From the IMG/VR virus record IMGVR_UViG_3300033067_000687, positions 1-40,545 of that record: a stretch of 40,545 nucleotides of DNA, one strand, 5' to 3'. This document shows positions 3,927 to 39,718 of this stretch, piece after piece. This stretch comes from a virus (taxonomy: Duplodnaviria; Caudoviricetes). The translations under genes were made by a program, and so were the position numbers. The number at the start of each line of letters is the position of its first letter. Positions within the stretch are counted from its first letter, which is position 1. The notes below the pieces were generated by a model. That model saw only the letters and a list, made by a program, of their open reading frames with translations, did not search any database and was not told where the DNA came from.

Positions 3927-5633
3927 TTACAGCCCCCACAGGCCAGCGAGCGGATCGCTGTCGTTCACGCCCCACAACCCGGCACCGGGGTTGAGGACTG
4001 CCGCGTCGCCGGCCGGATCCCACTCGCTAGTGCTCCCGAGATAGAGGCCCGGACCCCAAATCGACCCGCTGGAGTCGGTCGATTTGGTGCATAAATAGGT
4101 CGCCGTGTGCAGTTTACCAGACCCCTTGAACTCGTGAACGATGCTTTCGATCCAGAAGTCGCCCGACCCGAGCGAGCCGGACGCCAGCCCCAGGTGCTGG
4201 TGGACGACCCGGATACGGTCGGACGGTCGCCGGACCGCCATCGCCGCCCGCTGGAAGCCGGTCAGGCCGACCACGCCGACTTCGACGGTCGGCCGCTGCT
4301 CCTGGTAGTAGAGCGCCACCGAGTCCACGACGGCCTGGGCGTACCCCTCCGACAGTTCGGCCCGCCCGCTGACCGCGTAGTCGTGCTCGTCGTACTTCGC
4401 CACCGAAGCCGTCGTGTCGATGCTCTGCTCGATGGTCTGCTCGGAGACGACGGTGACGGCCTGGGCGCGCAGACGGAGATTGCTCACCGTCACCGAGCCT
4501 GAGCCTGAAGCGGTGAAGCGGATCGCCACCGTCGTAGCGAACGCCAGCCCCGAGACGAGCGACACGGCCAGGGTCGCCGTGCCGCTCGTCGTGAAGTCGC
4601 CGCCGCCGGTGGACGGCACGACCGGGTTCTTGATCGGGTCGGTCAGCGTGGCGAAGATCGTTTTGGTCTGGCCCGACGAGAGCGTGAACGCCTGCCCGTA
4701 CTGCCAGACCTGACCGGACGCCTGCACCGCCCGGTTCTTTATCTGCATCGTGACCCGGTTGTAAACCTCGCTGAAGTGCTGGCGATAGACCAGACTGGCG
4801 TGCCACGACTCGGTGGTGCCGTTGTAGTCCATCGGCGCGTTGTACGGGAGCGGCGCGTTGTACGGGATCGTCTGGCCGGTCTGGTCGTACAGGATCTGCT
4901 GCACCGAGTTTGAGCGGGTGGTGTTGGTGCGGTAGTTCCGGTTCTCGAAGTGGAACGTCCCGTCCGGCAGTTCCAGCACCAGCGACGGCGGGCCTTCGAC
5001 GGCCACGAGATCGAGGATCGCCTGCCACGCGCTCTGCCCGTCGAGCCACCAGTACGCCAGGATCGTGTCGCCCGCGACCGGCAGACTCCGCTTGTCGGCG
5101 GGCCAGCCAATGTTGTCGAGAATCACCGTCATCGCCGCTGCGGTGTCGATGTTCTCGTACAGCGTCGTCTTGACGGTCTTCTTCGACAACAGTCGCTGGA
5201 GCGACCCCAGGCCGCGCACGTCGGTCCGCACCACGCCGATGTCCGGCTGGTGGGTGATGTCGTCCAGGGTGCCCTCGAAGAGCACCACGTCGGCCGTGCC
5301 GTTGTACAGCACTGGCGCGTTGTAGGCGACGTTCGCGTTGTAGAGGATCGTCTCTCCGACGCGCTCTTCGACCCGCATCGGACGGCCGGGCATCACCAAC
5401 TGGTAGAGCGGCGAGTTCGAGTTCTCAGGCGAGAGCAGGCGGTCCTTGTTGATGAGCGCGCCGTCCGCAGCCGGCACCATCGGCGGCGAGAGCGGGCGTG
5501 CGGTGTCCCGCCCGAGCGCGATCCGCAGGCCGGGTTCGGCCAGCATCCGCGCCGTCACATCGTCGTATGTGCCGCTGAAGTCGCCGTTGTTCTGCCAGTC
5601 GATCTTGACGGTCGGGCGAGCCTTCGTGGTCAT
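3927..5633 (-). CDS. Tail tip / baseplate hub protein (starts MTTKARP)
   Basis: ATG at 5633 overlaps the tape measure stop (ATGA); DGTFHFENR hub-like motif; position. Confidence 0.7.
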   Translation of the reverse strand: MTTKARPTVKIDWQNNGDFSGTYDDVTARMLAEPGLRIALGRDTARPLSPPMVPAADGALINKDRLLSPENSNSPLYQLVMPGRPMRVEERVGETILYNANVAYNAPVLYNGTADVVLFEGTLDDITHQPDIGVVRTDVRGLGSLQRLLSKKTVKTTLYENIDTAAAMTVILDNIGWPADKRSLPVAGDTILAYWWLDGQSAWQAILDLVAVEGPPSLVLELPDGTFHFENRNYRTNTTRSNSVQQILYDQTGQTIPYNAPLPYNAPMDYNGTTESWHASLVYRQHFSEVYNRVTMQIKNRAVQASGQVWQYGQAFTLSSGQTKTIFATLTDPIKNPVVPSTGGGDFTTSGTATLAVSLVSGLAFATTVAIRFTASGSGSVTVSNLRLRAQAVTVVSEQTIEQSIDTTASVAKYDEHDYAVSGRAELSEGYAQAVVDSVALYYQEQRPTVEVGVVGLTGFQRAAMAVRRPSDRIRVVHQHLGLASGSLGSGDFWIESIVHEFKGSGKLHTATYLCTKSTDSSGSIWGPGLYLGSTSEWDPAGDAAVLNPGAGLWGVNDSDPLAGLWGL

Positions 5634-8600
5634 GCGCGCCCCCGCCGGAGAGCCAGTTCGCGGCCCTCGATCCACAGATCCTCGACCACTCGCCCGCCGA
5701 TGATGACCGGGACGTGCATGACATCCTTCGCCTGCTGGCTCTTCCAGCCGGCCGGCAGCGGCACGATGGCCTCATCCTGCCCGGCCTCACCCGCTCGCAG
5801 GAGGGTGCCGCCGCGCCGGGCGCGCACGATGCCGCCCTCGGCCATCTCAGGGATGCCGGGGATGCCGTCGCCGCCCAGGATCGCCTGGATGTACTTCAGC
5901 GATTCCTCGTACGGGTCGCCGCGCTCCCAATGCCCCACGGCCCCGCCGCCGCCGTTGTACGCCACCAGCGCCTTGACCAGATCGTCGTACTCGCCCATGT
6001 GGCTGTTCATCAGCCGGGCGGCGTAGTCGAGCGAGTCGAACGGGTCGTAGACGTTGACGTTAGGGTGGTAGCGGCTCAGGATCTGCGCGATGCCCCGCGC
6101 CTCGTCTTCGCCGCGACTCGCGTACCGCCCCTGACCCCAGATCACGTCAGAGTTCCAGTTGGCCGACTCGTGGCGCATCTGCCGCATGAAGACCTCCGGG
6201 AAGGGGAAGCCGTTGCGGCGCGCGGCGTCCCGGGCAAGCTTGGCCCAATCGGAATCGTCCACGTCCACGCCCGAGAACAGGCCGATGAACTCCTTCATCG
6301 TTGACTGCGCGTCGGGGAAGATTTTCTTCACGCCGTTCAGGAAGCCGAGCATCGTGTTCTCACCGAGCGCAAACATGACGTGCGACGGCGAGCGGTGCTC
6401 CAGGCGGTCGCGGATGAACTTCGGAATCCAGTCGATGATCTTCTGGAACCAGTTCGCAGCCGTGCCCTCTTCCGACTCGTTGCCCCACACCGTCTTCAAG
6501 CCGTCCCAGAAGGCGTCGATCAGGCCGCGCCCCGACTCGAACAGCCACTTGACCTCGAACGGGTTGTTGGCGTCCAGGCCGAGCGCCCCGAAGATCGCCT
6601 TCTTGAAGTTGTTGAACCAGGGCGAGAGCGTCTCGGCCCAGAAACTGTTCATGCCCCCGAGCACGCCGTCGAGCACGCCCCGGCCAATGTTCTTCAGGTC
6701 TTCGACCCACGCCAGCCCGCCCTCGCCGTTCCAGCCGATGGCCCCGAAGATCAGGTTCTTCAGCCCCTGGAACCACTTTTCGAGGCCGTCCGTCGAGCCG
6801 CCCTTCCAGAACTCCTCCAGGCCCACCTTCAGCCCTTCGAGCACCGCCTTGCCGATGCTCTTCAGGTCTTCGAGCCATTCGAGCGCCCCGGACGCGCCGG
6901 TCCCGATCCAGCCGATGGCCTTGAACACGAGGTTCTTGAAGCCGCCGAACCAGCCCTCCAGCGTGTCGGTCCAGTATTTCGCCATGCCGTCCCGCAGCCC
7001 TTCGAGCAGGGCGGTGCCGATCTCCGCGAAGACGGTGGACGGCGACTGGATGCCGAACAGTTTCTTGACCGTCTTGATGATCCAGTCGGTCGCCTGCCCG
7101 AGATACGGCTCCAGCCACTTCCACGCGGCCTGGATGCCGTCCCAGATGCCCGAGAGCAGCGCGCCGCCGATCTCGACCGCGCCCTTCAGGATGGCCGGCA
7201 CGGCGGTCGTCGCCATCCAGATCGAGACGGCCAGCAGTAGCTTCGCGAGTTCGGCCAGCACCAGCGGGATACGCGGGCCGACCCAATCCACAATGGCCCG
7301 TCCCCACTCGCCCAACTTGGTCACGAGCGCCGGCAGGCCGTCGCGGACGACCCAATTCAGGACCGCCAGCAGCAGCCGGCCGAGTGCGTTCAGCATCGGG
7401 AAAATCTTCGGAGCGACCCACTCCACGAACGCCAGCCCCCACCGGCCGAGCGCGTCCAACAGGTCGCCGGCCTTCGCGCCGAGCCATTCGATGGTCTTCG
7501 CCAGTAGCGACCCTAGCTTCGACAGGAGGTTCGGGATCTCGGGGATCACCCACTCCACGAACGCCGTGCCCCATTCGAGCAACTTGACGGCAAGCTTGGC
7601 GCTGGCCTCCCCGACCCAATCGAGCACCTGGACAGCGAGCGTCCCCAGGTTGTCCAGCAACGGCCCGCCGGCCGCGAGCACGCTCTCTCCCAGGAAGCCG
7701 AGCACGGAGAGCCAACCGCCCGTCTCGAAGGCGCTCTTCAGGCGATTGGTGAAGTATTCGATGGCCGCGCCCAACTTGCCGCCGAGCACGTCCTGAAGTT
7801 TGTTGACCAGCGAGACGCCGAGCGTCGCGCCGATGCCCGCGCCGATGGGGCCGAAGGCCGCGCCGCCGAGCACCGCGCCGATGGAGCCGGCGACGATCTG
7901 GAACCAGTTCTTGTCGATCCAGTTCTTGACGCCGCTCGACATCTTCTCCGCGAGCATCTTGCCCTGGTCTTCGGCCCACTTCTCCAGCGATGCGTCGGTC
8001 TTCCGCTGGTACGACTGCGGGCCGGTCGGCGCGGCGGGACCGCCGGCCCCGGCAGCGGCCTTCGCAGCCGCCTTCGCCGCGGCTTCCTGCTCCTTGATGG
8101 CCCGGACGTTCGCCTCGATCTCCGACTTGACGCCCTGGTACTGGCTCTTCAGTTGGTTCAGGTCTTCCTTCTGGCGGGCGAGCGAGTCCAACTGCGCCAG
8201 CATCGGGGCCAGCGTCGCGGTCTGCTCATCCTTGATGGCCTTGACCTGGGCGAGCACCTCGGCCTTCATGGCGTCGGCCCCCATGTCGTTGAGCGCCTGC
8301 TGGATGGTGTGCTCTTCCTTGCGGACCGCGAGCAACTCGCGCTCTTTGGCGATCTCCGCGAGCTTGTTCTTGTCCACCATCCCGTCGAGGTCGCGCTGAA
8401 GCCCGAGTTCCTTCTCGCGCAGTTCGAGGTTCTTCAGCTTGTGCTTGTTGTCTTCGGCGCGCTGCTTGTCGTCGTCCAGGGCGATCTGGCGACGCAGGCG
8501 CAGTTCCTTCAACTGCCCTTCGAGGCCGTCCGTGTCCTTGTGATCCTTCTTGGCCTGCTTGATCCGATCCTGAAGTTCCTGCTCCTGGCGCGCGAACTGC

Positions 8601-23314: not shown

Positions 23315-24793
23315 CTATGCCGACAGTGAGCGGACGCGAACCTCGGGCGTGCTGCGGTAGGCCCACCATGCGATAGCGGTCGCCATCACGCAGTCGTCGT
23401 GCATGCCTTCGGGGGCGCTGTAGCGGAGCATCCCGCTGCCGGCCCGCTCCGACTCGAACGCCTGGAGTTCGCCCAGGTAGATCGGGTCGTTGATCGTCTC
23501 GATCTCCCGCCGCTCGTAGGCCAGTTGCAACGCTTCGATGGCCTCGACTTTGCTGGAGGCGGTCGTCATGAACGGCTCGATGGGCAGGCCGTCGCGGTAC
23601 TCGCCCTCCCGCCAGACCTGATCGGCGCGTGGATCGACCTCGAAAGCCAGCACCCGGCCGTGTCGAACCTCCCGCAATGGGTACGGCAGGCGGTCCGGAT
23701 CGACCACGGTCAGCGTGTCCAAGTGGCCGTCGCGTCGGAGCATGAACGTCTGACTGCCACGGACGGCGATCCGGACGTAGGCCACGTCGGGCTGCTCGCG
23801 CTTCTCGGGCCGCATCAGGCTCTCGATGATCGGCACGCCGATGCTGTTCGCCTCGGGGGCGACGACCTCTGGCTCGAACAGGTCGTAGAGCGCCCGCAGC
23901 CGGCCGGTCTGGACGGCGTAGTCGATCATGTTGAACCGCTCGACGCGGACCACGCGGCGGCAGCAGGCGTCGAGCACGACGATCACGGTGAAGTCGTTCA
24001 GCTTGCCCCAATCGACGCCGAAGACGTACCGATGGCCCGGCACCGCCTCTTCCTGGTACTCGGCCACGGCCTGCTCCGCGACGAAGCGGAAGACGCCGTT
24101 GGTGTCGTCCAAGAATTGCGCCATGTGCTCTTGGAGGAAGATCAGTTCGGGCATCGACGCGCGGGCGTCGTCAATCTCGGACGGCGGGATGAACGGATTG
24201 GCCGTGGTCGGGAAGTGGAACGTCTTCCAGAGCGGCTGCACCGCGTCCAGGCCGCGCTGGTAGACGTGCCAGAACCAGTTCCGGCCCTTCGGCGTGCTGA
24301 TGAAGAGCGCCTTGCCCTGGCGGTCAGCGAGCGCCGGCCGGATGACCTCGGTCCAGGCCCGCTCTTTGATGAACGCGGCCTCGTCAAAGACCACGAAGTC
24401 CAGACCCTCGCCGCGTAGGTTGTCGGGGTCTTTGGCCGACTTGCAGCGGACGAAGCCGCCGTTCGGGAACTCCACCGAGAAGTCGCCGTCGCGGATGTCT
24501 GCGCCCGGCACCTTCTGGGCGACGGCCCGGACCATCCTCCAGCCGATCACGGCGACGCCGTAGGTCGGGGCGACCCACCAGCACTTCTTGCCGGCCGCTG
24601 CGAGCAGGATGCAGAGCAGCGCGCCAAGCTTCGTCTTGCCGAAGCGGCGACCGGCTGCGACAACGACGAAGCGGACCGTCGTCTCCAGCAGCGTCTTCAG
24701 GATCAGCGTCTGGCCCGGATGGGTGCGCGGCGGCTTCAGGACGATCCGCTCGGCCCCTTCCGGGACCGGGACGCTACTCCGGCGGGACGGCAT
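23315..24793 (-). CDS. terL: Terminase large subunit
   Basis: Walker A AGRRFGKT, LRGEGLDFVVFDEAA, ISTPKGRNWF, GVDWG, HDDCVMA; start codon uncertain. Confidence 0.95.
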   Translation of the reverse strand: MPSRRSSVPVPEGAERIVLKPPRTHPGQTLILKTLLETTVRFVVVAAGRRFGKTKLGALLCILLAAAGKKCWWVAPTYGVAVIGWRMVRAVAQKVPGADIRDGDFSVEFPNGGFVRCKSAKDPDNLRGEGLDFVVFDEAAFIKERAWTEVIRPALADRQGKALFISTPKGRNWFWHVYQRGLDAVQPLWKTFHFPTTANPFIPPSEIDDARASMPELIFLQEHMAQFLDDTNGVFRFVAEQAVAEYQEEAVPGHRYVFGVDWGKLNDFTVIVVLDACCRRVVRVERFNMIDYAVQTGRLRALYDLFEPEVVAPEANSIGVPIIESLMRPEKREQPDVAYVRIAVRGSQTFMLRRDGHLDTLTVVDPDRLPYPLREVRHGRVLAFEVDPRADQVWREGEYRDGLPIEPFMTTASSKVEAIEALQLAYERREIETINDPIYLGELQAFESERAGSGMLRYSAPEGMHDDCVMATAIAWWAYRSTPEVRVRSLSA

Positions 24794-25286
24794 CGGCCGG
24801 CACGTCTGGCTGCGGCGAGTGCATCTCCCAGGCGTCGGTGCCGTCGCCCCATTCAAGCTGAACGGTGACGGTCTTCTCCCGGTCCGCGACGCTGACCTCG
24901 GCCTTGCCAGTTGGGGAGGCGTACAGCCCGAGCAGGCGGGCGCGCATGCCCATCATGCCGGTCACGCGGTCGAACGCCATGTAGTCGCCGGCGACGGCCT
25001 TCGGCCAGAGCTTGGCGAACAGTTCGTCCAGGCGTTCGAGTTCGAGCACGCGGGCCTGCTCGACGGTTTCGGCGCGGTCGGTCCGCTGCCGTTCGAGCGC
25101 CGCGATCACGTCGGCGTGGGCGTTGCGCTCGCTGTAGCCCTTGCTGACGACGCCCCGCTGTCGGAGGGCTTCAGCGATGCGGCGGTAGGAGCCGCCCTGC
25201 TTGCGGAGGGTCAGCGCGGCGAACTCGCGGTCCTCGCGGCGCAGGCGCGCGGGCGCGGTGGGGTTGTTCTGGAGGTTGTCGGCCAT
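24774..25286 (-). CDS. terS: Probable terminase small subunit (HTH)
   Basis: ALTLRKQGGSYRRIAEAL...ELERLDEL...RARLLGL; directly upstream of and overlapping terL. Confidence 0.75.
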   Translation of the reverse strand: MADNLQNNPTAPARLRREDREFAALTLRKQGGSYRRIAEALRQRGVVSKGYSERNAHADVIAALERQRTDRAETVEQARVLELERLDELFAKLWPKAVAGDYMAFDRVTGMMGMRARLLGLYASPTGKAEVSVADREKTVTVQLEWGDGTDAWEMHSPQPDVPADAVPPE

Positions 25287-25365
25287 ACGGAGGCGTCGCT
25301 CGCTTTACGAGAACGCCGCCGCCGTATGCCTGGAAGGCAACCCGGCGTGCGGACGGGTGGATCAG

Positions 25366-25494
25366 TTAGCTACCGCTGGTCCGACCTTCAGCCGGAGCGG
25401 CAGCGCGGCGGCCGGTGACGCGGGCCACGGCCCGGCCGGCGGCACCCAGAAGATTCCGAGCACCAGCGCCAATGCGACCAAACAGGTTCCGCAC
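25366..25494 (-). CDS. 42-aa Arg/Ala/Gly-rich peptide absent from the ORF track
   Basis: AAGGAGGT RBS then GTG; MRNLFGRIGAGARNLLGAAGRAVARVTGRRAAAPAEGRTSGS. Confidence 0.7.
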   Translation of the reverse strand: MRNLFGRIGAGARNLLGAAGRAVARVTGRRAAAPAEGRTSGS

Positions 25495-25511
25495 GATGAG
25501 TTACCTCCTTC

Positions 25512-25940
25512 CTACGAGAGATCCCGGAAGCGACGGTCGATGCGAAGCAACGGCTCGGGGGGCACCGCTGCTTCGAGTTGGATGCCGAGTCGTTCTGCCA
25601 GAAGCATACCGTCAAGGTACTTGTCGCCGTGCTCCATTAGGTCGGTCTTCTGGAGGAACTCGTCCTTCTGCGCCCGCGACTGGAAGCAGACCGCGACCCA
25701 ATACTCCGAGTCGGTGGTGTCGGTGAAGCGGTCTTCCTCGCGAGCCGAGCGAGCCTTGAAGCCGGCCAAGACCTCCGACAACTCTTCCTTCGCGAGCGCC
25801 TCGGCCTCGTCAATCGTGGTCGGCTGGCCGTCGTCGTCGCCCCCGCCGTCGAGGGTGAGCGACTGGTCGTCCCCGAGCGCGAAGTCGTCCCCGCCGAGCG
25901 AGAACTCCAGATCCTGGCTGCTGGTGCGGCGTGGTGGCAC
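25512..25940 (-). CDS. Acidic protein, likely partner of the PP-loop enzyme
   Basis: AGGAGG RBS; Asp/Glu-rich N-terminus; DSEYWVAVCFQSRAQKDEFL...GDKYLDG. Confidence 0.7.
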   Translation of the reverse strand: MPPRRTSSQDLEFSLGGDDFALGDDQSLTLDGGGDDDGQPTTIDEAEALAKEELSEVLAGFKARSAREEDRFTDTTDSEYWVAVCFQSRAQKDEFLQKTDLMEHGDKYLDGMLLAERLGIQLEAAVPPEPLLRIDRRFRDLS

Positions 25941-25948
25941 GGTGCCTC

Positions 25949-26164
25949 CTACAGTCGGCCGGTCAGGCCGAAGATGATGACGGCGAGGGCAGCGCCGACG
26001 ACGATGCCGGCTCCGACCGAGACGCAGATCAGCGAGAAGACCCAGGTGACGACTTGGTAGGCGAGCATCGTCTCCTGCATCGACGTGTCCGGACTGTGAT
26101 CCTCGGGCGCGGAAGGGACCGGCCAGATGGCCGGCATCTCCTGGGCGTCAGGCGTAGAAGTCAC
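25949..26164 (-). CDS. Small membrane protein
   Basis: Long hydrophobic C-terminal segment; start uncertain. Confidence 0.5.
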   Translation of the reverse strand: MTSTPDAQEMPAIWPVPSAPEDHSPDTSMQETMLAYQVVTWVFSLICVSVGAGIVVGAALAVIIFGLTGRL

Positions 26165-26855
26165 GGCGGCGCTCCATCCGGAACAGTTCGAGGTCCGCGA
26201 GCGGGAACCACTCCAGCACCCGCTGGAAATCGCGGGGCGACTGCTCGCGGAGCGGGGCCATGAACCGATAGTCGAGGCCGTCGAAGGTCCGTCCGAACCA
26301 CTTGTAATCGACGGGAAGCTTGACGCCAGACTGCTTGATCTCGGAGATCAACTGCTCTTTGCGCCAGTCGAAGACCGGGAAGAAGGTCCGCTTGCCCTCG
26401 TTGAGCGGGCCGTGGCGCTTGATCGCGGTCCACCGCTGCGGACTGTCAACGGCGCGGACGCCGACCGCGCAGAACGTCTGCTGCGGAAGGCCGAAGATGT
26501 GCTTACTGACGACGAAGGCGTCCGGGTAGTCGTACTTCAGGAGGTTGGCCTGCTCGATGATGGCGCAATGCTCGGGCGGCTGGAAGATCAGCGCGTTCAG
26601 CCAGCGGTAGAGCGAGGGGTGCGGCAGGCGCAGGATGCGGGTGTCGAAGACCCGCTCGTAGTAGCGGAGCGACCGCTCGATGAACTCCAGGTCCGGCACG
26701 AGGTACATGTAGACGGGGAAGACCTCGATACCGTGCTTCCGCAACTGGAGCCAGCAGGCGATGGAGTCCTTGCCCGTCGAGAACGAGAGCAGCGCCTTGC
26801 CACCGCCCTGCTCTTTGACGTAGCGGCAGAGTTCGTCGGACGACTCGAACTGCAC
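26148..26855 (-). CDS. PP-loop adenine-nucleotide alpha-hydrolase (PAPS-reductase/DndC-like fold)
   Basis: LLSFSTGKDS PP-loop, VGVRAVDSPQR, FPVFDW; AAAGGA RBS. Confidence 0.8.
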   Translation of the reverse strand: MQFESSDELCRYVKEQGGGKALLSFSTGKDSIACWLQLRKHGIEVFPVYMYLVPDLEFIERSLRYYERVFDTRILRLPHPSLYRWLNALIFQPPEHCAIIEQANLLKYDYPDAFVVSKHIFGLPQQTFCAVGVRAVDSPQRWTAIKRHGPLNEGKRTFFPVFDWRKEQLISEIKQSGVKLPVDYKWFGRTFDGLDYRFMAPLREQSPRDFQRVLEWFPLADLELFRMERRRDFYA

Positions 26856-26906
26856 GTATCGGCATCCTTTCTCGGTCGGTCTGGGTGCTCCAGACGGTCA
26901 AATGTG

Positions 26907-26915
26907 AGCATAGCA
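26907..26915 (-). promoter_or_regulatory. Extended -10 (TGcTATGCT) for the packaging/late operon
   Basis: About 50 bp upstream of the PP-loop gene; similar TGn-10 elements precede portal and protease. Confidence 0.45.
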
Positions 26916-26930
26916 CGGCCCGGCGGCCGG

Positions 26931-27165
26931 CTTCCTGGGGCCATCCTGGTAGCCTCCTGGGGCCATCCTGGGGCCAGTACGGTGATTCTTGCCTCCTGGG
27001 GCCATTGTGGGGCTTCCTGGGGCCATTGTGGCATCTCTAGGGATGATACGGCTTCCGGGGCTTCCTGGGGCCATTGTGGGGCCAGAATCGGCCATCCTGG
27101 GGCCATTGTGACCAGGATGGGGCTACCGGGCCATTCTGGGGCTTCCTGGGGCCATTCCGGGCCAG
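26931..27165. repeat. Left repeat array: 8 x CCTGGGGCCA, including 3 exact GGGGCTTCCTGGGGCCATT
   Basis: Copies start at 26934, 26956, 26967, 26995, 27016, 27064, 27096, 27145. Confidence 0.9.
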
Positions 27166-27181
27166 TCTGCCATCTCTAGGG

Positions 27182-27199
27182 CTGTTACATATGCAACAG
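27182..27199. promoter_or_regulatory. Imperfect palindrome CTGTTACATATGCAACAG upstream of the -35
   Basis: 8 of 9 positions pair; AT-rich UP-element position. Confidence 0.5.
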
Positions 27200-27209
27200 T
27201 CAAAATGGG

Positions 27210-27238
27210 TTGACAACCATCTCTAGGGATGGTAGAGT
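27210..27238 (+). promoter_or_regulatory. Sigma70 promoter with a palindromic operator filling the spacer
   Basis: TTGACA (27210-15), 17 bp, TAGAGT (27233-38) with extended TG; ACCATCTCTAGGGATGGT at 27216-33; related copies at 27032 and 27171. Confidence 0.8.
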
Positions 27239-27288
27239 CAATCTTGCCAGGAGGCACTAGCCTCTTGAGCCAGCCAGGAGATACCACG

Positions 27289-28053
27289 GTGACAATCAAG
27301 GCTTCGGATCTGTCCTTTGGGGTTGAGATTGAATGCCTCATGCCAGCGGGCCGGCAGTTTGCAGCCGGTGGCTACCATCGGGGCCAGCAGATCCCGTCGC
27401 TCGGGGAGTGGTCGGCGGCCGGCTGGAATGCTCAGGCAGATTCGAGCGTGTCGGGCGGCGTTGAGGTTGTCTCTCCCATCCTGACCGGGGAAGAGGGGCT
27501 GTACCAGACATGGGCGGTCGTGGAGTACCTCGCTTCCATCGGCACCCAGGTTGACCGGCGGTGCGGCCTGCATGTGCATGTGGACGCACGGTCGCTCACG
27601 GAAGCCCAGGTGCGGACCATCCAACGGGAGTTTCAGAAGGTCGAGCGAGCGTTCTACGCGCTGAACGCTGAGAAGGCCGGGGAGCGGTGGGGCAGCATCT
27701 ACTGCATGCCGTACTCGCGGGTGGGGGCCGCTCAGGCAGACGGCACCCGGTACATGAGCCTCAACATTCAGAACTGGCTCCGGGGGACGCGCTCAAAGAA
27801 GACTCTGGAGTTCCGGCTCTTCGCTGGCACGATGGACCCTCGCAAGGTCATGACGGCGGTCCTGATGTGTGTCTCTCTGGTGGCGGCAGTTGCCAACGGC
27901 GAGACGTTCGCAGAGAAGCCCGATGCGGTGGGCCAGACCAAAGTCCTCATCAAGCAGGCTATCCAGAAGCATCGCATCGTTGAGGGCCACGGTGTCTCGG
28001 ATGTGCTGCGGTACATGCTAGAGGAAGTGGGCCGGGCCACCATACCGGCCTAA
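27289..28053 (+). CDS. Putative amidoligase (COOH-NH2 ligase, Amidoligase_2-type)
   Basis: FGVEIE, DSSV..GVEVVSPIL, CGLHVHV, RYMSLN, TLEFR; AGGAG RBS before GTG at 27289. Confidence 0.88.
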   Translation: MTIKASDLSFGVEIECLMPAGRQFAAGGYHRGQQIPSLGEWSAAGWNAQADSSVSGGVEVVSPILTGEEGLYQTWAVVEYLASIGTQVDRRCGLHVHVDARSLTEAQVRTIQREFQKVERAFYALNAEKAGERWGSIYCMPYSRVGAAQADGTRYMSLNIQNWLRGTRSKKTLEFRLFAGTMDPRKVMTAVLMCVSLVAAVANGETFAEKPDAVGQTKVLIKQAIQKHRIVEGHGVSDVLRYMLEEVGRATIPA

Positions 28054-28445
28054 CGGCCCGGCCCCATCCCTACCAGGAAGCCCCCGGAAGCCGGGGGCTT
28101 CCTACATGACCGGCCCATGCGGGCCGGCACATGTGGCCCGGACGGAAGCGGCCGGGCCACATGTGCCGGTAGCAGAATCGGCCCAGGAAGCCCCAGGAAG
28201 CCCCCGGATCGGCCGGGTGCTATGGGGATAGTACCGGCCCCCATTCCGGGCCTCCTGACGGCCATCTGGCCCCATTCTGCGGCATTTTATGTTGTCAGTC
28301 TGGCCCCATGTGATGCCAGAACGGTCACAGGAAGCCCCAAACCCGGCCGGCTGGCCCCAGGATCGGCCCGGCCGGAATCGGCCCCCGGAAGCCCAGGAAT
28401 CAAGCCCCAGGATCGGCCGGCAACGGCCCGGCCTACCAGACCAGA
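28054..28445. repeat. Right repeat and hairpin array, inverted relative to the left array
   Basis: CAGGAAGCCCC x4 (28074, 28184, 28194, 28328) and TGGCCCCAGG (28352) are reverse complements of left units; 13-bp hairpin 28075-28103; 18-bp hairpin 28124-28169. Confidence 0.85.
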
Positions 28446-28461
28446 CCAGGAGGGTAGAGAG

Positions 28462-29172
28462 ATGACAACAGGCACACAAGAGCTAATCCAGAAGGCGCTG
28501 TCGCTCGGCGGGCACAAGCGGAAGGCCGGCAAGCCGGTCCAGAAGAAGCGCCGGATCGTCTGCCACGAGGGGACGGGCACCGGCATTGTCAAGGCCGTAG
28601 TCGAGCGGCTCGGCGGCGTGCTGCGGGTGGTCAATACTCTGGAAGAGGCGCAGACGCTCTCGTTCGACGGGCTGCTGCTCCTGGGTGGGGCCGACATCAA
28701 CCCGGCGTGGTACGGCGAGGCCATCACCCATGCCACCCGGATCGACCAGAAGCGCGACATCATCGAGTGGTGCCTGATCCGGCGGGCCATCACGGCGGGC
28801 GTCCCGGCGATGGGCATTTGCCGGGGCAACCAGATGCTCGCGGCGGCGCACGGCGGGAGTCTGTACCAGGATCTGCTGGCAGACGGCGTGACGACGCGCA
28901 ATCACAGCGGCCGGGGCCACCGGCTGGTGGACGTGATGCGCCCACTGGCCCGCCACATGCCGGGCACCCGACAGGTCAACTCGTACCACCATCAGGCCGT
29001 CAAGACGGTCCCGCACGGCTTCGACGTGGCGGCAGAGTCCGAAGACGGGGTGATCGAGGCGATCTGGCGACCGGGCTACCTGGGCGTCCAGTGGCACCCG
29101 GAGTTGCTGATCGGCCAGGGCGATTCGGATTGGGTGACGCTGTTCAAGTGGTTCATGGCCGGGCTAGACTAA
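28462..29172 (+). CDS. Class I glutamine amidotransferase / peptidase C26 (PuuD-like)
   Basis: DGLLLLGGADINP, MGICRGNQ (catalytic Cys), VNSYHHQAV, GVQWHPE; GGAGG RBS before ATG at 28462. Confidence 0.92.
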   Translation: MTTGTQELIQKALSLGGHKRKAGKPVQKKRRIVCHEGTGTGIVKAVVERLGGVLRVVNTLEEAQTLSFDGLLLLGGADINPAWYGEAITHATRIDQKRDIIEWCLIRRAITAGVPAMGICRGNQMLAAAHGGSLYQDLLADGVTTRNHSGRGHRLVDVMRPLARHMPGTRQVNSYHHQAVKTVPHGFDVAAESEDGVIEAIWRPGYLGVQWHPELLIGQGDSDWVTLFKWFMAGLD

Positions 29173-29180
29173 GAGCGCGA

Positions 29181-29208
29181 GGGATGGCAGACGGGCGTCT
29201 GCCATCCC
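29181..29208. promoter_or_regulatory. Perfect 12-bp hairpin before the HTH gene, sharing the operator half-site
   Basis: GGGATGGCAGAC-GGGC-GTCTGCCATCCC; GTCTGCCATC also at 27165. Confidence 0.5.
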
Positions 29209-29225
29209 GTCACTGGAGGCCCGAC

Positions 29226-29486
29226 ATGACAGCGCCAGCCACGAAGAGGAAGCCGCGAAGAAAAGCGGCACCCCGGACGTACTCAACCCAAGAGGTCGCG
29301 GACATGGTGAACCGTGCCCGCGTGACCGTCCGTCAGCTTGCACAGAAGTACGAAGACGACCCGAAGCCCATCGGCCAGAAGATCGGCCGCGACTGGCGCT
29401 TCACCGACGAGGACGTAGAGCGTATCAAGGTGCTTCAGCCACCCGACGAGGCTCGTCTGCGGCGGCTCCCGGAAGTCGCGCCCTGA
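29226..29486 (+). CDS. MerR/excisionase-like HTH DNA-binding protein
   Basis: YSTQEVADMVNRARVTVRQLA...KIGRDWRFTDEDV; GGAGG RBS. Confidence 0.8.
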   Translation: MTAPATKRKPRRKAAPRTYSTQEVADMVNRARVTVRQLAQKYEDDPKPIGQKIGRDWRFTDEDVERIKVLQPPDEARLRRLPEVAP

Positions 29487-29493
29487 CCCTGGC

Positions 29494-29703
29494 TCAGTTC
29501 ACCGAAAAGCCCGCCCGATCCTTCACGTTCTGCGTGAGGGTATCGAGGCGGGCTTTTTGCTGCTCGGAGAGCGGCTCGACGGCGAGTTCGGCCGCGCGCT
29601 GCTCGACATGCTCCAGCGTCAGCGTGCCGCCGACGTAGAGGATCTCCAGGGTGTCGATCTGCGAGTCGATCAGCGCCGCCCTGAACCGTGCCTGTGCATC
29701 CAT
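29494..29703 (-). CDS. Hypothetical protein (starts MDAQARF)
   Basis: GGAGGGG RBS; TAGAAT -10 at 29723-28. Confidence 0.55.
   Translation of the reverse strand: MDAQARFRAALIDSQIDTLEILYVGGTLTLEHVEQRAAELAVEPLSEQQKARLDTLTQNVKDRAGFSVN
29505..29558. terminator. Long hairpin terminator closing the + strand island
   Basis: AAAAGCCCGCC-CGAT-CCTTCACG loop CGTGAGGG-ATCG-GGCGGGCTTTTT; overlaps the 3' end of the convergent ORF. Confidence 0.7.
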
Positions 29704-29729
29704 GACGCCCCTCCCGTCATGGATTCTAC

Positions 29730-30179
29730 CTACGCGGACTTCGCCCCTTGCGCCACGCGGACGTAACGGATCGTCCCGTCGAGCGCGAAGACCATCTTCA
29801 CCCGCCGAGTGGCGAGCAGGCGGTCCAGGGCGGCGAGCCACTCGCGCCGCGTGGCATCGACCTCGACGGCCTCGGCCAGCGCGACCGCCGACATCGAGCC
29901 GTGCGGCTGGAGATCGAGCAAGTTGTAGATCGCCGTCTCAAACTCGGCGGTGCGCTTCGGGTCGGGCGGCGCGTTCTTCGGAGGACGGCCGCGACGGGGA
30001 CGCTCCGGCTCCACGACCGGCCGGGCCACGATCACGCGGGCGACCACCGACCGACCGCACATCAGGCAGTCCACGTCGTCGTCTGCGATGTGCGAGACGT
30101 AGCTTGACGGCCCGGCTCCGCAGGCCGGGCAGGACGGGTGCAGCACCACCTTGCGCGGGGTCATCACGAGCGTAGCCAT
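29730..30179 (-). CDS. Zinc finger plus wHTH-like protein, candidate late regulator
   Basis: CPACG...CLMCG, AT-hook-like RRGRPPK, C-terminal helix/wing pattern. Confidence 0.55.
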   Translation of the reverse strand: MATLVMTPRKVVLHPSCPACGAGPSSYVSHIADDDVDCLMCGRSVVARVIVARPVVEPERPRRGRPPKNAPPDPKRTAEFETAIYNLLDLQPHGSMSAVALAEAVEVDATRREWLAALDRLLATRRVKMVFALDGTIRYVRVAQGAKSA

Positions 30180-30596: not shown

Positions 30597-31136
30597 CTAG
30601 CGGGAGAGAATCGCGGCGACCTCGCTATCTGTCGGGCGTCGGTGTCCCTTGCTGCGATTGCAGGGGTGACACGACGGAACAAGGTTCTCCATCGTGTTCG
30701 AGCCACTGTGACAGAGCGGAAGGACGTGATCCCACGTCTCTTGTTCGCCGCCGCAGTAGCGGCACGGGCCAACGAGCAATTTCAGCAGGCGACCTTGGAG
30801 ACGACCGGGTACTCCCCATCGCCGCGCTCGTGCATTGGCTCTGACAGCAAAAGAGATCGAGCGGTACGACCAGGATTTCGCCTGCGCGTACAACCGCGAC
30901 CTCTCGTTGTGTTCCGTCTTGTGTTCGCTGTAGTAGCGTCTCTGTCGTTCGTTCAGTTCAGATCGGTGCCGCTCCTTGTACCGTGTCCGATTTTCTCGGA
31001 CCTTGGCTGGATCTCTTCCTGTGCCAGTCCCGCGCAACGATGCGGCGTAACACTGGCGCGAGCAATACGGGCGATTTGCGTAACTCGGGCTGACCAGTTC
31101 GATCTGCCCGCACCGGCGGCACGTCCTTTCGACCAT
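30597..31136 (-). CDS. HNH endonuclease
   Basis: CRYCG...WDHVLPL..SGSNTMENLVPSCHPCNRSKG; N-terminal CxxC/YCS..C; visibly lower GC. Confidence 0.9.
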   Translation of the reverse strand: MVERTCRRCGQIELVSPSYANRPYCSRQCYAASLRGTGTGRDPAKVRENRTRYKERHRSELNERQRRYYSEHKTEHNERSRLYAQAKSWSYRSISFAVRANARARRWGVPGRLQGRLLKLLVGPCRYCGGEQETWDHVLPLCHSGSNTMENLVPSCHPCNRSKGHRRPTDSEVAAILSR

Positions 31137-31138
31137 CG

Positions 31139-31543
31139 CTACCTCGCTAGAACTTTGAGGATCTCGGGCCAGTCAGAGGGCTTCCATACGAACACCTCGA
31201 CGCCTGGGATCTGACGGAACAAGTCGAGCCACTCCTGCTGCTCGGGGCTGACGCGCCCCTTCTCGCTCTTCAGTTCGGCCACGATCAGGCGCGAGCCTCG
31301 GAACAGGAACAGGTCGGGCCAGCCCTTCTTGTTGCGTCGGCGCTTGACGGCTTCGCCGCAGCGGTCGCACTTGCGCGGCGTGTTGGTCGCCTCGTCGTGC
31401 CAGGAGGCCCACCCCATCAGGTCGGCCGTGGCGACGACTTGGCGGTGCAAGACCCGCTCGGGCACGGATGCCGCGAGCGGGTCGATGGCGGTCGAGCGGT
31501 AGCCGAGCGGACGGCCACGCTGTCCTGTGAAACGGGCTACCAT
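31139..31543 (-). CDS. VRR-NUC domain nuclease
   Basis: GWPDL...AELKSEKGRVSPEQQEW...VWKPSD. Confidence 0.88.
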   Translation of the reverse strand: MVARFTGQRGRPLGYRSTAIDPLAASVPERVLHRQVVATADLMGWASWHDEATNTPRKCDRCGEAVKRRRNKKGWPDLFLFRGSRLIVAELKSEKGRVSPEQQEWLDLFRQIPGVEVFVWKPSDWPEILKVLAR

Positions 31544-35849: not shown

Positions 35850-36113
35850 TCAGTTCCCCTCGGGCACCGCCGTCGCCAGCGACCGCAGCCGCCGGTAGCA
35901 GGGGCGGCAGGACGGGTTGACCTCGGCGTCGTTCATGTCGGTCGCGCCGAGCGGGTACGCGATCAGGAACAGCGTCGCGGGAGCCTCGCAACCGATCCCG
36001 TCCGGGCCGTTCGGCAGGCCGGTGCAGCGCACGTCGATACCCTGCGGCACCGGGACGGCCTGGGCTTCGATCAGGGCGTCGTCCCGCATCGTCGCCATCG
36101 TCTTGATCGTCAT
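35850..36113 (-). CDS. Hypothetical Cys-containing protein
   Basis: ATG overlaps the methyltransferase stop. Confidence 0.45.
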   Translation of the reverse strand: MTIKTMATMRDDALIEAQAVPVPQGIDVRCTGLPNGPDGIGCEAPATLFLIAYPLGATDMNDAEVNPSCRPCYRRLRSLATAVPEGN

Positions 36114-36880
36114 GCGACCCCCGGCAGCGCAGCCTGGAGCACGACGGCCTCCAGCATCGGCCAGTAGCCCGGCTCGCGCTCGATCAGCCACGCCTCGCGT
36201 CCGTAGGCGCGGGCGACCTTGCCAGTCGTGCCGGTGCCGGCCCACGGGTCGAGCACCACGTCGCCGGGGCTACTGAACAGGCCGATCAGGCGGGCGACCA
36301 GCGCCTCGGGGAAGGCCAGCGGCTGGCCCGCCCCCGAGCGCCGTCCGGGCGGTAGCACCCACACGTCTTTGGTCGCTTCGAGGTAGTCGGCCACTCCCCA
36401 CTCGTTGGACATGCCGGCGACGCTGTACGTCTCCTTCGAGGCCAGCAGCACCATCTCGTGGACCGGCCGGGCGTACGGGTTGGTCGGCGCTCCGAACGCC
36501 GTCGTGGAGGCCGTGGGCGTCACGCCGTCCGTGGCCTTGACCCACACAATCGGCTCGCGCAGCAGCCAGCCCATCGGCAGGAGCAACTGCGCCGCGATCA
36601 CCGACGCCAGCGGGTAGGCCCGGTGGTGCGCCGTGCGGATCGTCTGCGGCACGTTCAGCGCCAGGACGCCGCCCGTCTTCAGCACGATCTGAAGGTGCGC
36701 CAGGGTGCGGCCGAGCATGTGGAGATACTCGGGTAGCGGCAGCGAGTCGCCAGCGCCGCCGTCGCGGTAGTCGTAGCCGACGTTGTAGGGCGGGCTGGTG
36801 ACGACCAACTGGACGCCGCCGGCCTCGATATCGGACAGGGCGGCGAGGTTGTCGCCCCGATAGAGCCTGCTCTCGCTCAT
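36110..36880 (-). CDS. Orphan DNA methyltransferase, beta class (N4-C / N6-A)
   Basis: VTSPPY catalytic motif before VLDPWAGTGTT SAM motif; AFPEALV. Confidence 0.9.
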   Translation of the reverse strand: MSESRLYRGDNLAALSDIEAGGVQLVVTSPPYNVGYDYRDGGAGDSLPLPEYLHMLGRTLAHLQIVLKTGGVLALNVPQTIRTAHHRAYPLASVIAAQLLLPMGWLLREPIVWVKATDGVTPTASTTAFGAPTNPYARPVHEMVLLASKETYSVAGMSNEWGVADYLEATKDVWVLPPGRRSGAGQPLAFPEALVARLIGLFSSPGDVVLDPWAGTGTTGKVARAYGREAWLIEREPGYWPMLEAVVLQAALPGVA

Positions 36881-37374
36881 GCGAATCCCTTCATCAACAT
36901 GAATCTCTGGCCGGCGCGACCGCACTCGTCATCGCACCAGACGTTGTGTTTGCTGACCGGCCCGCCCCGTTTGCCGACGCCGGCCTGCAACTGCGCCTTC
37001 GTCGGGTGGCCGTCAAGCCGCACGTAGTCGAGCGCCCTGAGCCGCCCGAGCACCATCGCCATCCGTCGCCGCCACTCCAGCGGGATGCCGGTCAGGCGGG
37101 CGTCGTCGCGGAAGCGTCGGATCGTCACCAGCGAGTCGGTGCAGACCTTCCCGGACCAGCCGTACGGCAGCGCCTCCAGGCCGGAGAGCAGCGCGTAGAA
37201 CTCGGTCTGGTTGTTCGTGACCGGCCCGCCGACCTCGGACGGCAGGATCACGCCGCTGGCGTGCCAGATGCGGTAGTCGTCAGCGTCCACATGGCACGTC
37301 GCCCAGGTGCCCGCGATGGGCGACGGGTTGACGCGCAGCACCCCGCCGTCCGCATAGATCGCCGCCGCGCTCAC
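36877..37374 (-). CDS. RNase H-like protein
   Basis: IYADGG...TNNQTEFYA...VCTDS...GHP...NVWCD; GTG at 37374. Confidence 0.8.
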   Translation of the reverse strand: MSAAAIYADGGVLRVNPSPIAGTWATCHVDADDYRIWHASGVILPSEVGGPVTNNQTEFYALLSGLEALPYGWSGKVCTDSLVTIRRFRDDARLTGIPLEWRRRMAMVLGRLRALDYVRLDGHPTKAQLQAGVGKRGGPVSKHNVWCDDECGRAGQRFMLMKGFA

Positions 37375-38797: not shown

Positions 38798-39718
38798 TTA
38801 CGCCTGGACAGCGGCCGGCAGGATCACCCGCTGGCCGTCGTACGGCGTCCCCTCGATCTTGATGGGGTAGAGCGTGGTCCGCTCGTACGGCCGCGCCTTG
38901 AACGTCCGACCCTCGAACGCCCCGTTCCAGCAGGCCGCGACCACCCGCGCCACGATGGCCGGCGCGCGGCGAGCCAGCGGCGTCGTCAGCATGTACTCGC
39001 GGAGCACCAACTCCGGCGACTCAGCCCGCAGTCCGTCAGCTTCGGCCGTGGTGCGCCAGAACGACTCGGCCAGTTCCGGCTGGTGACGGAACGTGATGAG
39101 TGCGACCGCGAAGCACGCCCCGGTGTACAGCCGTTTCGAGTGTCGCCCCTTGCCGATGACCCTGGACGCCTCGCGAACCTCGGGTGCCCACTCGAAGATC
39201 AGCGCCTTGCGGGCGTCGGGGTGGACGCCGCGCGTGCCGCGATCCATCTTGGCGAAGCCGGTGCCGATCAGCGAGACGGCCGCGCTGGCGTTCTTCACGT
39301 CGAGCGCCGTCAGGCCGATCCGCTCGAACGCCCCTTCGGCGTGCAGCACGTCCCGCAGGGTGCGGCCGATGCCCCGGTCGAGCCGTCCGTACTCGGCGTC
39401 GAGTTCGCCCTCCGACTCGCAGGAGGCTTCGATCACGACCACCGTCGCCGGCATGCCTGACAGCACGATTGCGCTCAGGCGGTGCTGGCCGTCGATCAGG
39501 TAGGTTCGCTTGCCGACCGTCCGGACCTGGATGGCCGTCGTCTCGAAGGTGCCGCGCCGAATCGTCGCGGCCAGCATCTCGACGTGCCCCTCCCGCAACG
39601 GCCGCTGTCGCGGGTACTTCCAATCGGTGAGCCACCGCGCCGCCATCTCGGGCGTCACGGTCACGACGCGCGTGTCCAGCAGCCCGCTCGGCGCGGGCCA
39701 GATTCCTTGTGCCACCAC
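38798..39718 (-). CDS. ParB/Srx-like DGQHR-motif protein
   Basis: VTPEMAARWL...QRPL...LIDGQHRLSAI...LDRG..RT. Confidence 0.75.
   Translation of the reverse strand: MVAQGIWPAPSGLLDTRVVTVTPEMAARWLTDWKYPRQRPLREGHVEMLAATIRRGTFETTAIQVRTVGKRTYLIDGQHRLSAIVLSGMPATVVVIEASCESEGELDAEYGRLDRGIGRTLRDVLHAEGAFERIGLTALDVKNASAAVSLIGTGFAKMDRGTRGVHPDARKALIFEWAPEVREASRVIGKGRHSKRLYTGACFAVALITFRHQPELAESFWRTTAEADGLRAESPELVLREYMLTTPLARRAPAIVARVVAACWNGAFEGRTFKARPYERTTLYPIKIEGTPYDGQRVILPAAVQA

Follow-up and report, generated by a model that had tools for sequence, protein, structure and literature searches.

Strand-specific trinucleotide deserts accompany a PP-loop ATP pyrophosphatase gene pair in phages

In a 40,545-nucleotide (nt) stretch of tailed-phage DNA (IMG/VR record IMGVR_UViG_3300033067_000687, about 52% complete; this whole stretch is called the window), in which nearly all genes lie on the - strand, two tracts at 26858-27394 and 27980-28495 completely lack CGA, CGC and CGT (together CGH) on the + strand. 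These deserts are real, selected and widespread: comparable ones, in which a word of the xCG family is missing from one strand, recur next to a gene pair composed of a PP-loop ATP pyrophosphatase gene (the PP gene) and a partner gene. The strand is set by the direction of the PP and terminase genes, and the word changes with the enzyme clade. The account that we consider the best, with rather better than even confidence, is that the pair adds a bulky mark to one strand of virion DNA in an ATP-dependent way and that a first-read gene cassette is kept free of it.

The two tracts were picked post hoc, but their gap sizes lie far beyond the window's own gap distribution: the CGH-free gaps on the + strand measure 540 nt (26855-27395) and 518 nt (27978-28496), and the third-largest measures 73 nt. 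The original prediction had estimated by hand that some 20 and 37 CpGs in the tracts all read CGG on the + strand in a window otherwise full of CGA, CGC and CGT; direct counting gives exactly 20/20 and 37/37, and the three words together occur 3,845 times on that strand over the whole window. Although 44 of the 57 CpGs lie inside repeat arrays, the 13 that remain after masking all read CGG (background 0.305), and zero CGH was reached in none of 3000 dinucleotide shuffles per tract (means 10.3 and 21.5); the bias thus survives repeat masking, which had been suggested as a check together with shuffling. The inversion of one array relative to the other, also pointed out beforehand, leaves the avoidance on the same strand in both tracts.

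The avoidance extends, as had been proposed, into non-repetitive coding sequence. The amidoligase gene contains 29 CGH against 65 expected from its own protein and the phage codon usage (the lowest of 2000 recodings had 49), and the earlier count of 14 CGG codons among its 18 for Arg is exact; the amidotransferase gene has 43 against 51 expected, and the helix-turn-helix (HTH) gene 26 against 27. One earlier statement has to be given up, namely that ACG, TCG and GCG are common in the tracts: these opposite-strand words, read on the + strand, are present, but at 29 versus about 106 expected (GCG 6 versus 45). One strand shows a complete bias, the other a partial one. When folded in silico, the first desert does no better than its shuffles (z -1.2); the second does (z -5.2), owing to hairpins whose arms have CpGs solely in CCGG context. 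This is what is expected if one strand must be free of the word in both arms, because CCGG is the only CpG context without the word on both strands. A metagenome contig (run X1) is identical to 23742-30055; it possibly comes from the source sample and therefore validates the assembly only.

With what do such deserts travel? Of 80 amidoligase loci, three contain a window-type PP-partner pair; the gap at the amidoligase gene is in CGC in two of them and in CGH in the third. PP loci (all loci gathered in this analysis, with or without the gene, carry L-numbers, or G004) were then collected from viral contigs (80), prokaryote genomes (80) and cultured phages, 173 in total, of which 90 were left after dropping near-duplicates and loci with less than 2.5 kilobases (kb) upstream or less than 6 kb overall; a single PP protein as query had found no match among viral contigs, and an alignment-based search succeeded. 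A desert was called from a gap in ACG, GCG, TCG, RCG or DCG with a score, the number of expected sites missing, of at least 20, the motif set and the threshold having been chosen after a first look at the loci. By this rule, 54 of the 90 PP loci have an xCG desert on the PP strand, all from -5 to +1.5 kb of the gene; the reverse-complement words reach the threshold near the gene in 10/90. By contrast, none of 41 non-redundant loci without the PP gene (out of 77; 35 amidoligase loci and 6 stretches of cultured actinophages) has a desert on either strand. Left out of these controls were four Bacteroides-type loci (L004, L005, L038, L042) with GGA/TCC-type gaps, in which the PP gene is perhaps beyond the fetched stretch.

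A terminase-matched set under the identical rule (46 of 80 loci with 5 kb upstream, 39 non-redundant) yielded deserts in 19 of 22 loci with the PP gene, many of them prophages already in the main set, versus 0 of 17 without it. Both comparisons answer the question, raised by the original prediction, of how related phages with and without this gene would differ. The desert-less loci include L271, in which the terminase is 93% identical and the cassette absent, and L307, in which a DUF932 gene adjoins the terminase and there is no PP gene. The pair is the common factor because cassette content varies (DUF932 in 23, DUF2786 in 8 and amidoligase in 6 of the 90 loci) and the same genes outside this setting show no desert; the amidoligase is a passenger, given that the 41 controls are mostly amidoligase loci. 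A metagenome search with a 74% identical amidoligase (P0002) gave no locus and thus no close orthologue for comparison. The cassette genes are of an early, variable type (DUF932, DUF2786, DUF3560, DUF2958, DnaJ, WYL_2).

The PP gene was confirmed in at least 145 IMG/VR stretches (among the first 598 checked of an estimated ~2,900 pattern matches) and is encoded by the cultured Gordonia phages Cafasso and VanLee; there was no E. coli DNA match. It occurs in 1 of 72,556 plasmids, for which reason conjugative single-strand transfer was dropped as a cause. Two observations stand apart. Cafasso (81337-81932, which is L014 44180-44775) and VanLee (L265) have a both-strand CpG desert, with one CG in 595 nt at 67% G+C, that coincides with a divergent promoter region with 10-nt repeats; and a 1744-nt contig (L457), too short for a PP gene, encodes an amidoligase 41% identical to that of the window, with CGC 4 versus GCG 38 on its strand.

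The strand of the missing word is set by the PP-loop and terminase direction, not by transcription. A terminase hit was obtained in 53 loci and not in 37; the PP gene is on the terminase strand in 51 of the 53. In PP-strand orientation, xCG is missing both where the cassette gene opposes the PP gene, as amidoligase genes do (L016, GCG 1 versus 19 expected; L095, ACG 0 versus 9 and GCG 0 versus 9), and where it runs along with it, as does the DUF932 gene of L211 (ACG 0 versus 19, GCG 0 versus 31). In the latter gene GCG encodes 0 of 34 Ala and ACG 0 of 26 Thr, against 31/68 and 9/24 in the terminase of the same locus. A single 2.6-kb ACG desert in L246 spans genes of both directions, with PP-strand ACG at 0/8, 0/14 and 0/4. 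Pooled over ACG-type deserts (16.7 kb), no ACG is left, and the ratio of observed to expected CGT is 1.0; CCG is commoner in deserts, and the word was thus escaped through a change of its flank. Since the word is fixed to the PP strand regardless of gene direction, template-strand and messenger RNA (mRNA) readings are disfavoured: of the selection against a template-strand word proposed earlier, the one-strand word and its link to the phage's PP-loop gene are supported, and the template strand is not. Loci in which the PP gene is opposite to the terminase (L010, L155) have no clear one-strand desert, so the two directions are not separable. The first of them (Cutibacterium phage CA1NRNZ) has a short CpG-poor patch on both strands at ~30800-31250, in its non-coding right end.

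The word, in turn, changes with the enzyme clade, even inside one host genus. In a quick tree of 89 PP proteins, in which phage lineage and PP lineage are confounded, the avoided word is RCG, with TCG tolerated, in one clade from Amycolatopsis-type hosts (support 100), and DCG in others of that host genus. ACG-type deserts are found in Kingella, Rhodobacterales, Bacillota and an acidobacterial bin, and the xCG family as a whole in hosts of at least four phyla. A search for PP residues that determine the word yielded no usable result, descent being a confounder.

Other words are missing elsewhere. L004 and L005 lack both GGA and TCC for ~3.8 kb (4152-8119) over HTH, WYL_2, amidoligase, class II amidotransferase and ASCH genes, a cassette that adjoins an integrase, with no PP gene within the fetched stretch. 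L481 (1652-3515) and L492, PP loci with a divergent amidoligase, lack GGG and CCC; L011 (22292-23543), L126, L133 and L191, of Pasteurellaceae and other types, have no ACY, ACB or ACS on the PP strand across the PP and partner genes; and L145, L125 and L194 lack GC-based words (MGC/GCK, or GC itself) instead of xCG.

Averaged over the 54 desert loci, depletion extends from about -2.5 kb to 0 relative to the PP start, and the main deserts of the 11 records that are whole or nearly so are at most 6 kb upstream of the PP gene, the exceptions being a small CpG gap 17.8 kb off in Cafasso and a CGC gap 9 kb off in G004. The PP coding region itself is mostly undepleted across loci; in the window it has 88 CGH/kb, and both it and the partner gene, which are closer to the terminase, are undepleted. 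Deserts contain promoter-like sites at about six times the density (37 in 46.9 kb versus 122 in 961 kb), 21 pointing one way and 16 the other. In L211, L246 and L196, deserts of 2 kb cover unique genes. In L208 and L239 the desert reaches into coding sequence of low complexity, rich in Ala, Lys and Pro (a histone-like repeat protein and the tail of a sliding-clamp-like gene), and an array unit of the window, GAATCGGCCCAGGAAGCCCC (28175-28199), recurs in the desert of L239, a Hydrogenophaga prophage, in the orientation opposite to its PP gene.

The PP-loop protein is a PP-loop ATP pyrophosphatase of the PAPS-reductase-like branch. In its model (predicted local distance difference test score, pLDDT, 97) the PP-loop motif occupies residues 26-31; S.GKD[SA] is present in 118 and GVRAVDSPQR, a GxRxxE/DSxxR-type motif, in 108 of 120 homologues. 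Foldseek matches are TtuA, GMP synthase, TilS and PAPS reductase (TM ~0.45-0.54). A wide fold search gave 31 chains with Z of at least 8, those listed being PP-loop enzymes: FAD synthase, APS/PAPS reductases and CysD rank at the top (Z 11.5-12.8), then TilS (11.0-11.3), and the best match is the PAPS domain of FAD synthase (Z 12.8, root-mean-square deviation 3.2, 160 aligned). FAD synthase and CysD adenylate a phosphate or sulfate; the phage protein can plausibly adenylate an oxyanion. The catalytic motif of CysH is a C-terminal ECG(L/I)H, and PAPS-domain proteins of phosphorothioation have conserved cysteines for a cluster or persulfide. Among the 120 homologues, none has ECG(L/I)H, none has CC...CxxC, and no Cys is invariant (72/120 in the best column); the protein is therefore neither CysH nor a DndC-type sulfur transferase. 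The window protein has no Pfam, NCBIfam or TIGR00434 match, and PADLOC returned no hits for it or its partner. The partner gene follows the PP gene in nearly all loci; its product has no named relative in the Atlas and no fold match, its model being weak (predicted template modelling score, pTM, 0.46).

How might such an enzyme come to empty a neighboring stretch of one short word? From the sequence patterns we infer a mark, its chemistry and the timing of the pair's action. The desert would be the footprint of the pair's target, DCG in the window, with the PP enzyme acting on DNA; a backbone adduct is somewhat likelier than a base adduct because the closest folds adenylate phosphate or sulfate and the DNA-acting relatives modify the backbone. 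Only one strand may be marked because the enzyme works with a fixed polarity, the simplest place for this being the packaging motor, before whose genes the PP gene lies; polar marking at packaging would account for where the gene is located, for the restriction to a single strand and for the sparing of replicating and prophage DNA. The mark would shield virion DNA from host nucleases yet hinder host RNA polymerase or other early handling. Lambda and SPP1 package the DNA upstream of the small terminase gene last and inject it first. The cassette upstream of the terminase, likely the first to be read, would have to work before the mark is removed or diluted, and its strong promoters and early genes would purge the word, fully in free sequence and partly in coding regions. 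The rest of the genome could be recovered from the clean strand or through an eraser; amide-hydrolysing cassette genes are possible erasers in some lineages, a lead only. The most specific version is tentative: a widespread two-gene module that rides the packaging motor and adenylates or otherwise caps one virion strand at a three-letter word that depends on the clade. This cloak, polarised and reversible, would spare replicating and prophage DNA, leave the other strand as a clean template, and force an unmarked start-up cassette by the terminase.

Several observations weigh against marking of one virion strand by the pair. No xCG desert reaches the threshold in 36 of the 90 PP loci, and a broader motif scan of these 36 found no shared substitute word. 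Many of the positive loci are related Pseudonocardiaceae prophages, no cassette gene is universal, and L271 lacks both the pair and the cassette, so that the two travel as one block and the association cannot part a writer from a fellow traveller. The inverted DUF932 genes of L232, L233, L234 and L287 are undepleted on both strands, DUF2786 genes are depleted only mildly, and in Cafasso, VanLee, L097 and L145 both strands are depleted. A consensus promoter match is present in only 16 of the 54 deserts; the PP and partner genes of Kingella-type loci lie inside the desert, which a purely late writer would not need; and in the 11 whole records the immunity and replication genes have no desert, so that an eraser or tolerance must be assumed. 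Finally, there is a distant PP clade (22-27% identity, with a ParB-like partner) from Bacteroides and Riemerella phages, with 83 loci, of which 68 were usable and 21 non-redundant. The top missing word is GGA in 10 and TCC in 4 of these 21, and an xCG desert is present in 1; neither the strand rule nor the identity of the marked base thus transfers simply. That a central C on the terminase strand is part of every word was considered and failed, as GGA leads on that strand in this clade.

Could the attack come from the host instead? In this unlikely though serious alternative, which the original prediction had also raised, the first phage DNA inside the cell is attacked at xCG by a nuclease or DNA toxin of the host, the PP pair is an early counter-defence or repair function, and the cassette avoids the word until the pair is expressed. 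The leading regions of T7 and T5 avoid motifs. The early injected region of Murciavirus is described as avoiding a host Type I restriction-modification motif (PMC12455610). There, as here, the word is absent only from a variable cassette, near a genome end there and upstream of the terminase here; unlike there, where the motif is long and the host's, the present word has three letters, is missing from one strand and tracks a phage gene. The early, variable type of the cassette genes and the loci in which the pair lies within the desert suit this alternative. It is weakened by the variation of the word with PP clade among prophages of one host genus, by the presence of one xCG family across phyla, by the absence of deserts from pair-less phages of like hosts, and by the undepleted pair genes of the window; what was found, RCG and DCG clades in one host genus and no desert without the phage gene, is not the pattern of a host-set motif. 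Plasmid leading regions are a related case, in which palindromes are reported as not consistently depleted (PMC13478746). Quite unlikely is purely local action, in which the pair works after entry or only in one place, such as near the packaging site or on DNA that has become single-stranded there, and the desert self-protects the nearest 2-3 kb, the virion DNA not being marked overall. The narrow extent of the depletion, the desert-free immunity and replication genes, the escape of distal inverted DUF932 genes and the ParB-like domain of the Bacteroides-type partner would all fit; the PP coding region, the nearest to the supposed loading site, is nonetheless mostly undepleted, and Cafasso has its second gap far away.

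Erosion of the word by local strand-biased mutation, e.g., deamination of a marked or exposed C, without selection, is very unlikely: ATG and TTG are up 1.3-1.6-fold in some desert classes and the other strand is partly depleted, but there is no dominant product, CCG is up, Arg codons shift to CGG, a flank change that mutation of the target cannot give, and Ala and Thr are retained through other codons. Avoidance in mRNA of the word cut by a sequence-specific ribonuclease, for which the coverage of highly expressed early genes would speak, is very unlikely indeed, since the word missing from the mRNA is reversed when the gene direction is (CGH for the amidoligase gene of the window, RCG for DUF932), L246 has both directions in one desert, and the window's desert also covers ~350 nt 5' of the promoter match. 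A by-product of repeat arrays, or chance, has next to no probability left: most of the window's CpGs are in arrays and some other deserts are tandem repeats (L187, L197, L265), but the non-array CpGs conform, coding sequence is recoded, unique-gene deserts exist, and the masking result and both comparisons of loci with and without the pair refute it.

Marking by the PP pair has precedents in part. PAPS-domain proteins modify DNA in Dnd, Ssp and BREX-4 systems, Ssp acting on single strands at CCA (PMC12914056); a work cited there mentions an adenylated DNA intermediate in its title (An et al., 2025). As in these systems, with their DndC, SspD and BrxP, and in Tdp, a PAPS-reductase-domain protein is tied to short DNA words, the action on DNA being proposed here; unlike in them, the window-type gene resides in phages beside the terminase, and its product has neither an invariant cysteine nor a PADLOC match. 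No partner nucleoside triphosphatase (DndD, SspC, BrxC) or cysteine desulfurase was seen adjoining the PP gene among the proteins of the 52% complete window, and the terminase ATPase is 2 kb away. The strand here is fixed to genome direction, which is not known for Ssp marks. Mom of phage Mu is an example of post-replicative phage DNA modification. In post-replicative hypermodification, context-specific marks are made on the polymer before packaging, and amidoligase and amidotransferase genes co-occur (PMC8989533). Unlike in thymidine hypermodification, the enzyme family is another one and the amidoligase, a proposed cell-wall modifier (PMC11318856), belongs to a small minority of window-type loci; a scan of 60 proteins of the incomplete window found no genes of 5-hydroxymethyldeoxyuridine or deazaguanine pathways. 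E. coli YqfB, an ASCH-domain protein, hydrolyses N4-acylcytosines (PMC6972931); an ASCH gene (weak Pfam match) directly 5' of the PP gene in 21/21 Bacteroides-type loci is, by this likeness, a candidate eraser, and the window has no ASCH gene.

Viral cysH has been read as sulfur assimilation (PMC12647753; 10.64898/2026.09.14.751636). The present protein shares the fold and PHROG label of CysH and lacks its catalytic motif. A common phage gene labelled PAPS reductase gains a predicted substrate word and strand, and part of the viral sulfur metabolism now counted would, if marking occurs, be DNA armour; phage DNA could then be marked on one strand according to genome direction, and both modifying enzymes and first-read cassettes could be traced through local motif deserts. 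If the virion strand is capped, the target words of unknown modifying enzymes would be readable from sequence alone. In the open-access literature, we found no study of the PP gene pair or of such deserts, and no description of phage DNA marked on one strand by genome direction.

Table 1. Deserts, genes and other elements of the window discussed in the text
Feature	Position	Strand	Description
Desert 1	26858..27394		no CGH on +, i.e., no DCG on the PP-loop/terminase strand; from the PP-loop start codon to ~105 nt inside the amidoligase gene
Desert 2	27980..28495		from the end portion of the amidoligase gene across the intergenic array and the hairpins to nt 34 of the glutamine amidotransferase gene
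PP-loop ATP pyrophosphatase, PAPS-reductase-like fold	26148..26855	-	235 aa; STGKDS, GVRAVDSPQR; phrog_2302 E 7e-27
Partner protein	25512..25940	-	142 aa; no known family; conserved TDSEYW...GDKYLDG
Array 1	26916..27234	+	imperfect 10-11 nt GGGGCC/CTTCCTGG repeats; CpG-poor filler 5' of the promoter
Sigma-70-like promoter	27210..27238	+	TTGACA-17-TAGAGT, extended TG; sole match in 26500-29800; consensus match only
Amidoligase_2 gene	27289..28053	+	start GTG after GGAG; longest open reading frame from 27229; recoded against CGH
Array 2	28032..28431	+	inverted relative to array 1; hairpins at 28075-28103 and 28124-28169
Class I glutamine amidotransferase (Peptidase_C26)	28462..29172	+	weakly depleted
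HTH_17-like small DNA-binding protein	29226..29486	+	last cassette gene; no depletion
Inverted repeat with T run	29493..29569		likely cassette terminator
Likely terminase small subunit	24774..25286	-	assigned by position; PHROG label 'RNase E'
Terminase large subunit	23315..24856	-	same strand as the PP-loop gene

The replication region of the window encodes an N6/N4 DNA methyltransferase and a ParB-like protein (36110-36925 and 38798-39718, - strand), neither of which tracks the desert in the 11 whole records; the methyltransferase was dropped as a cause, a homologue being found in 1 of these 11 desert-bearing records. Between the PP gene and its partner lies an open reading frame of 71 aa (25949-26164, - strand), without a family match, that ends in a hydrophobic C-terminal stretch.

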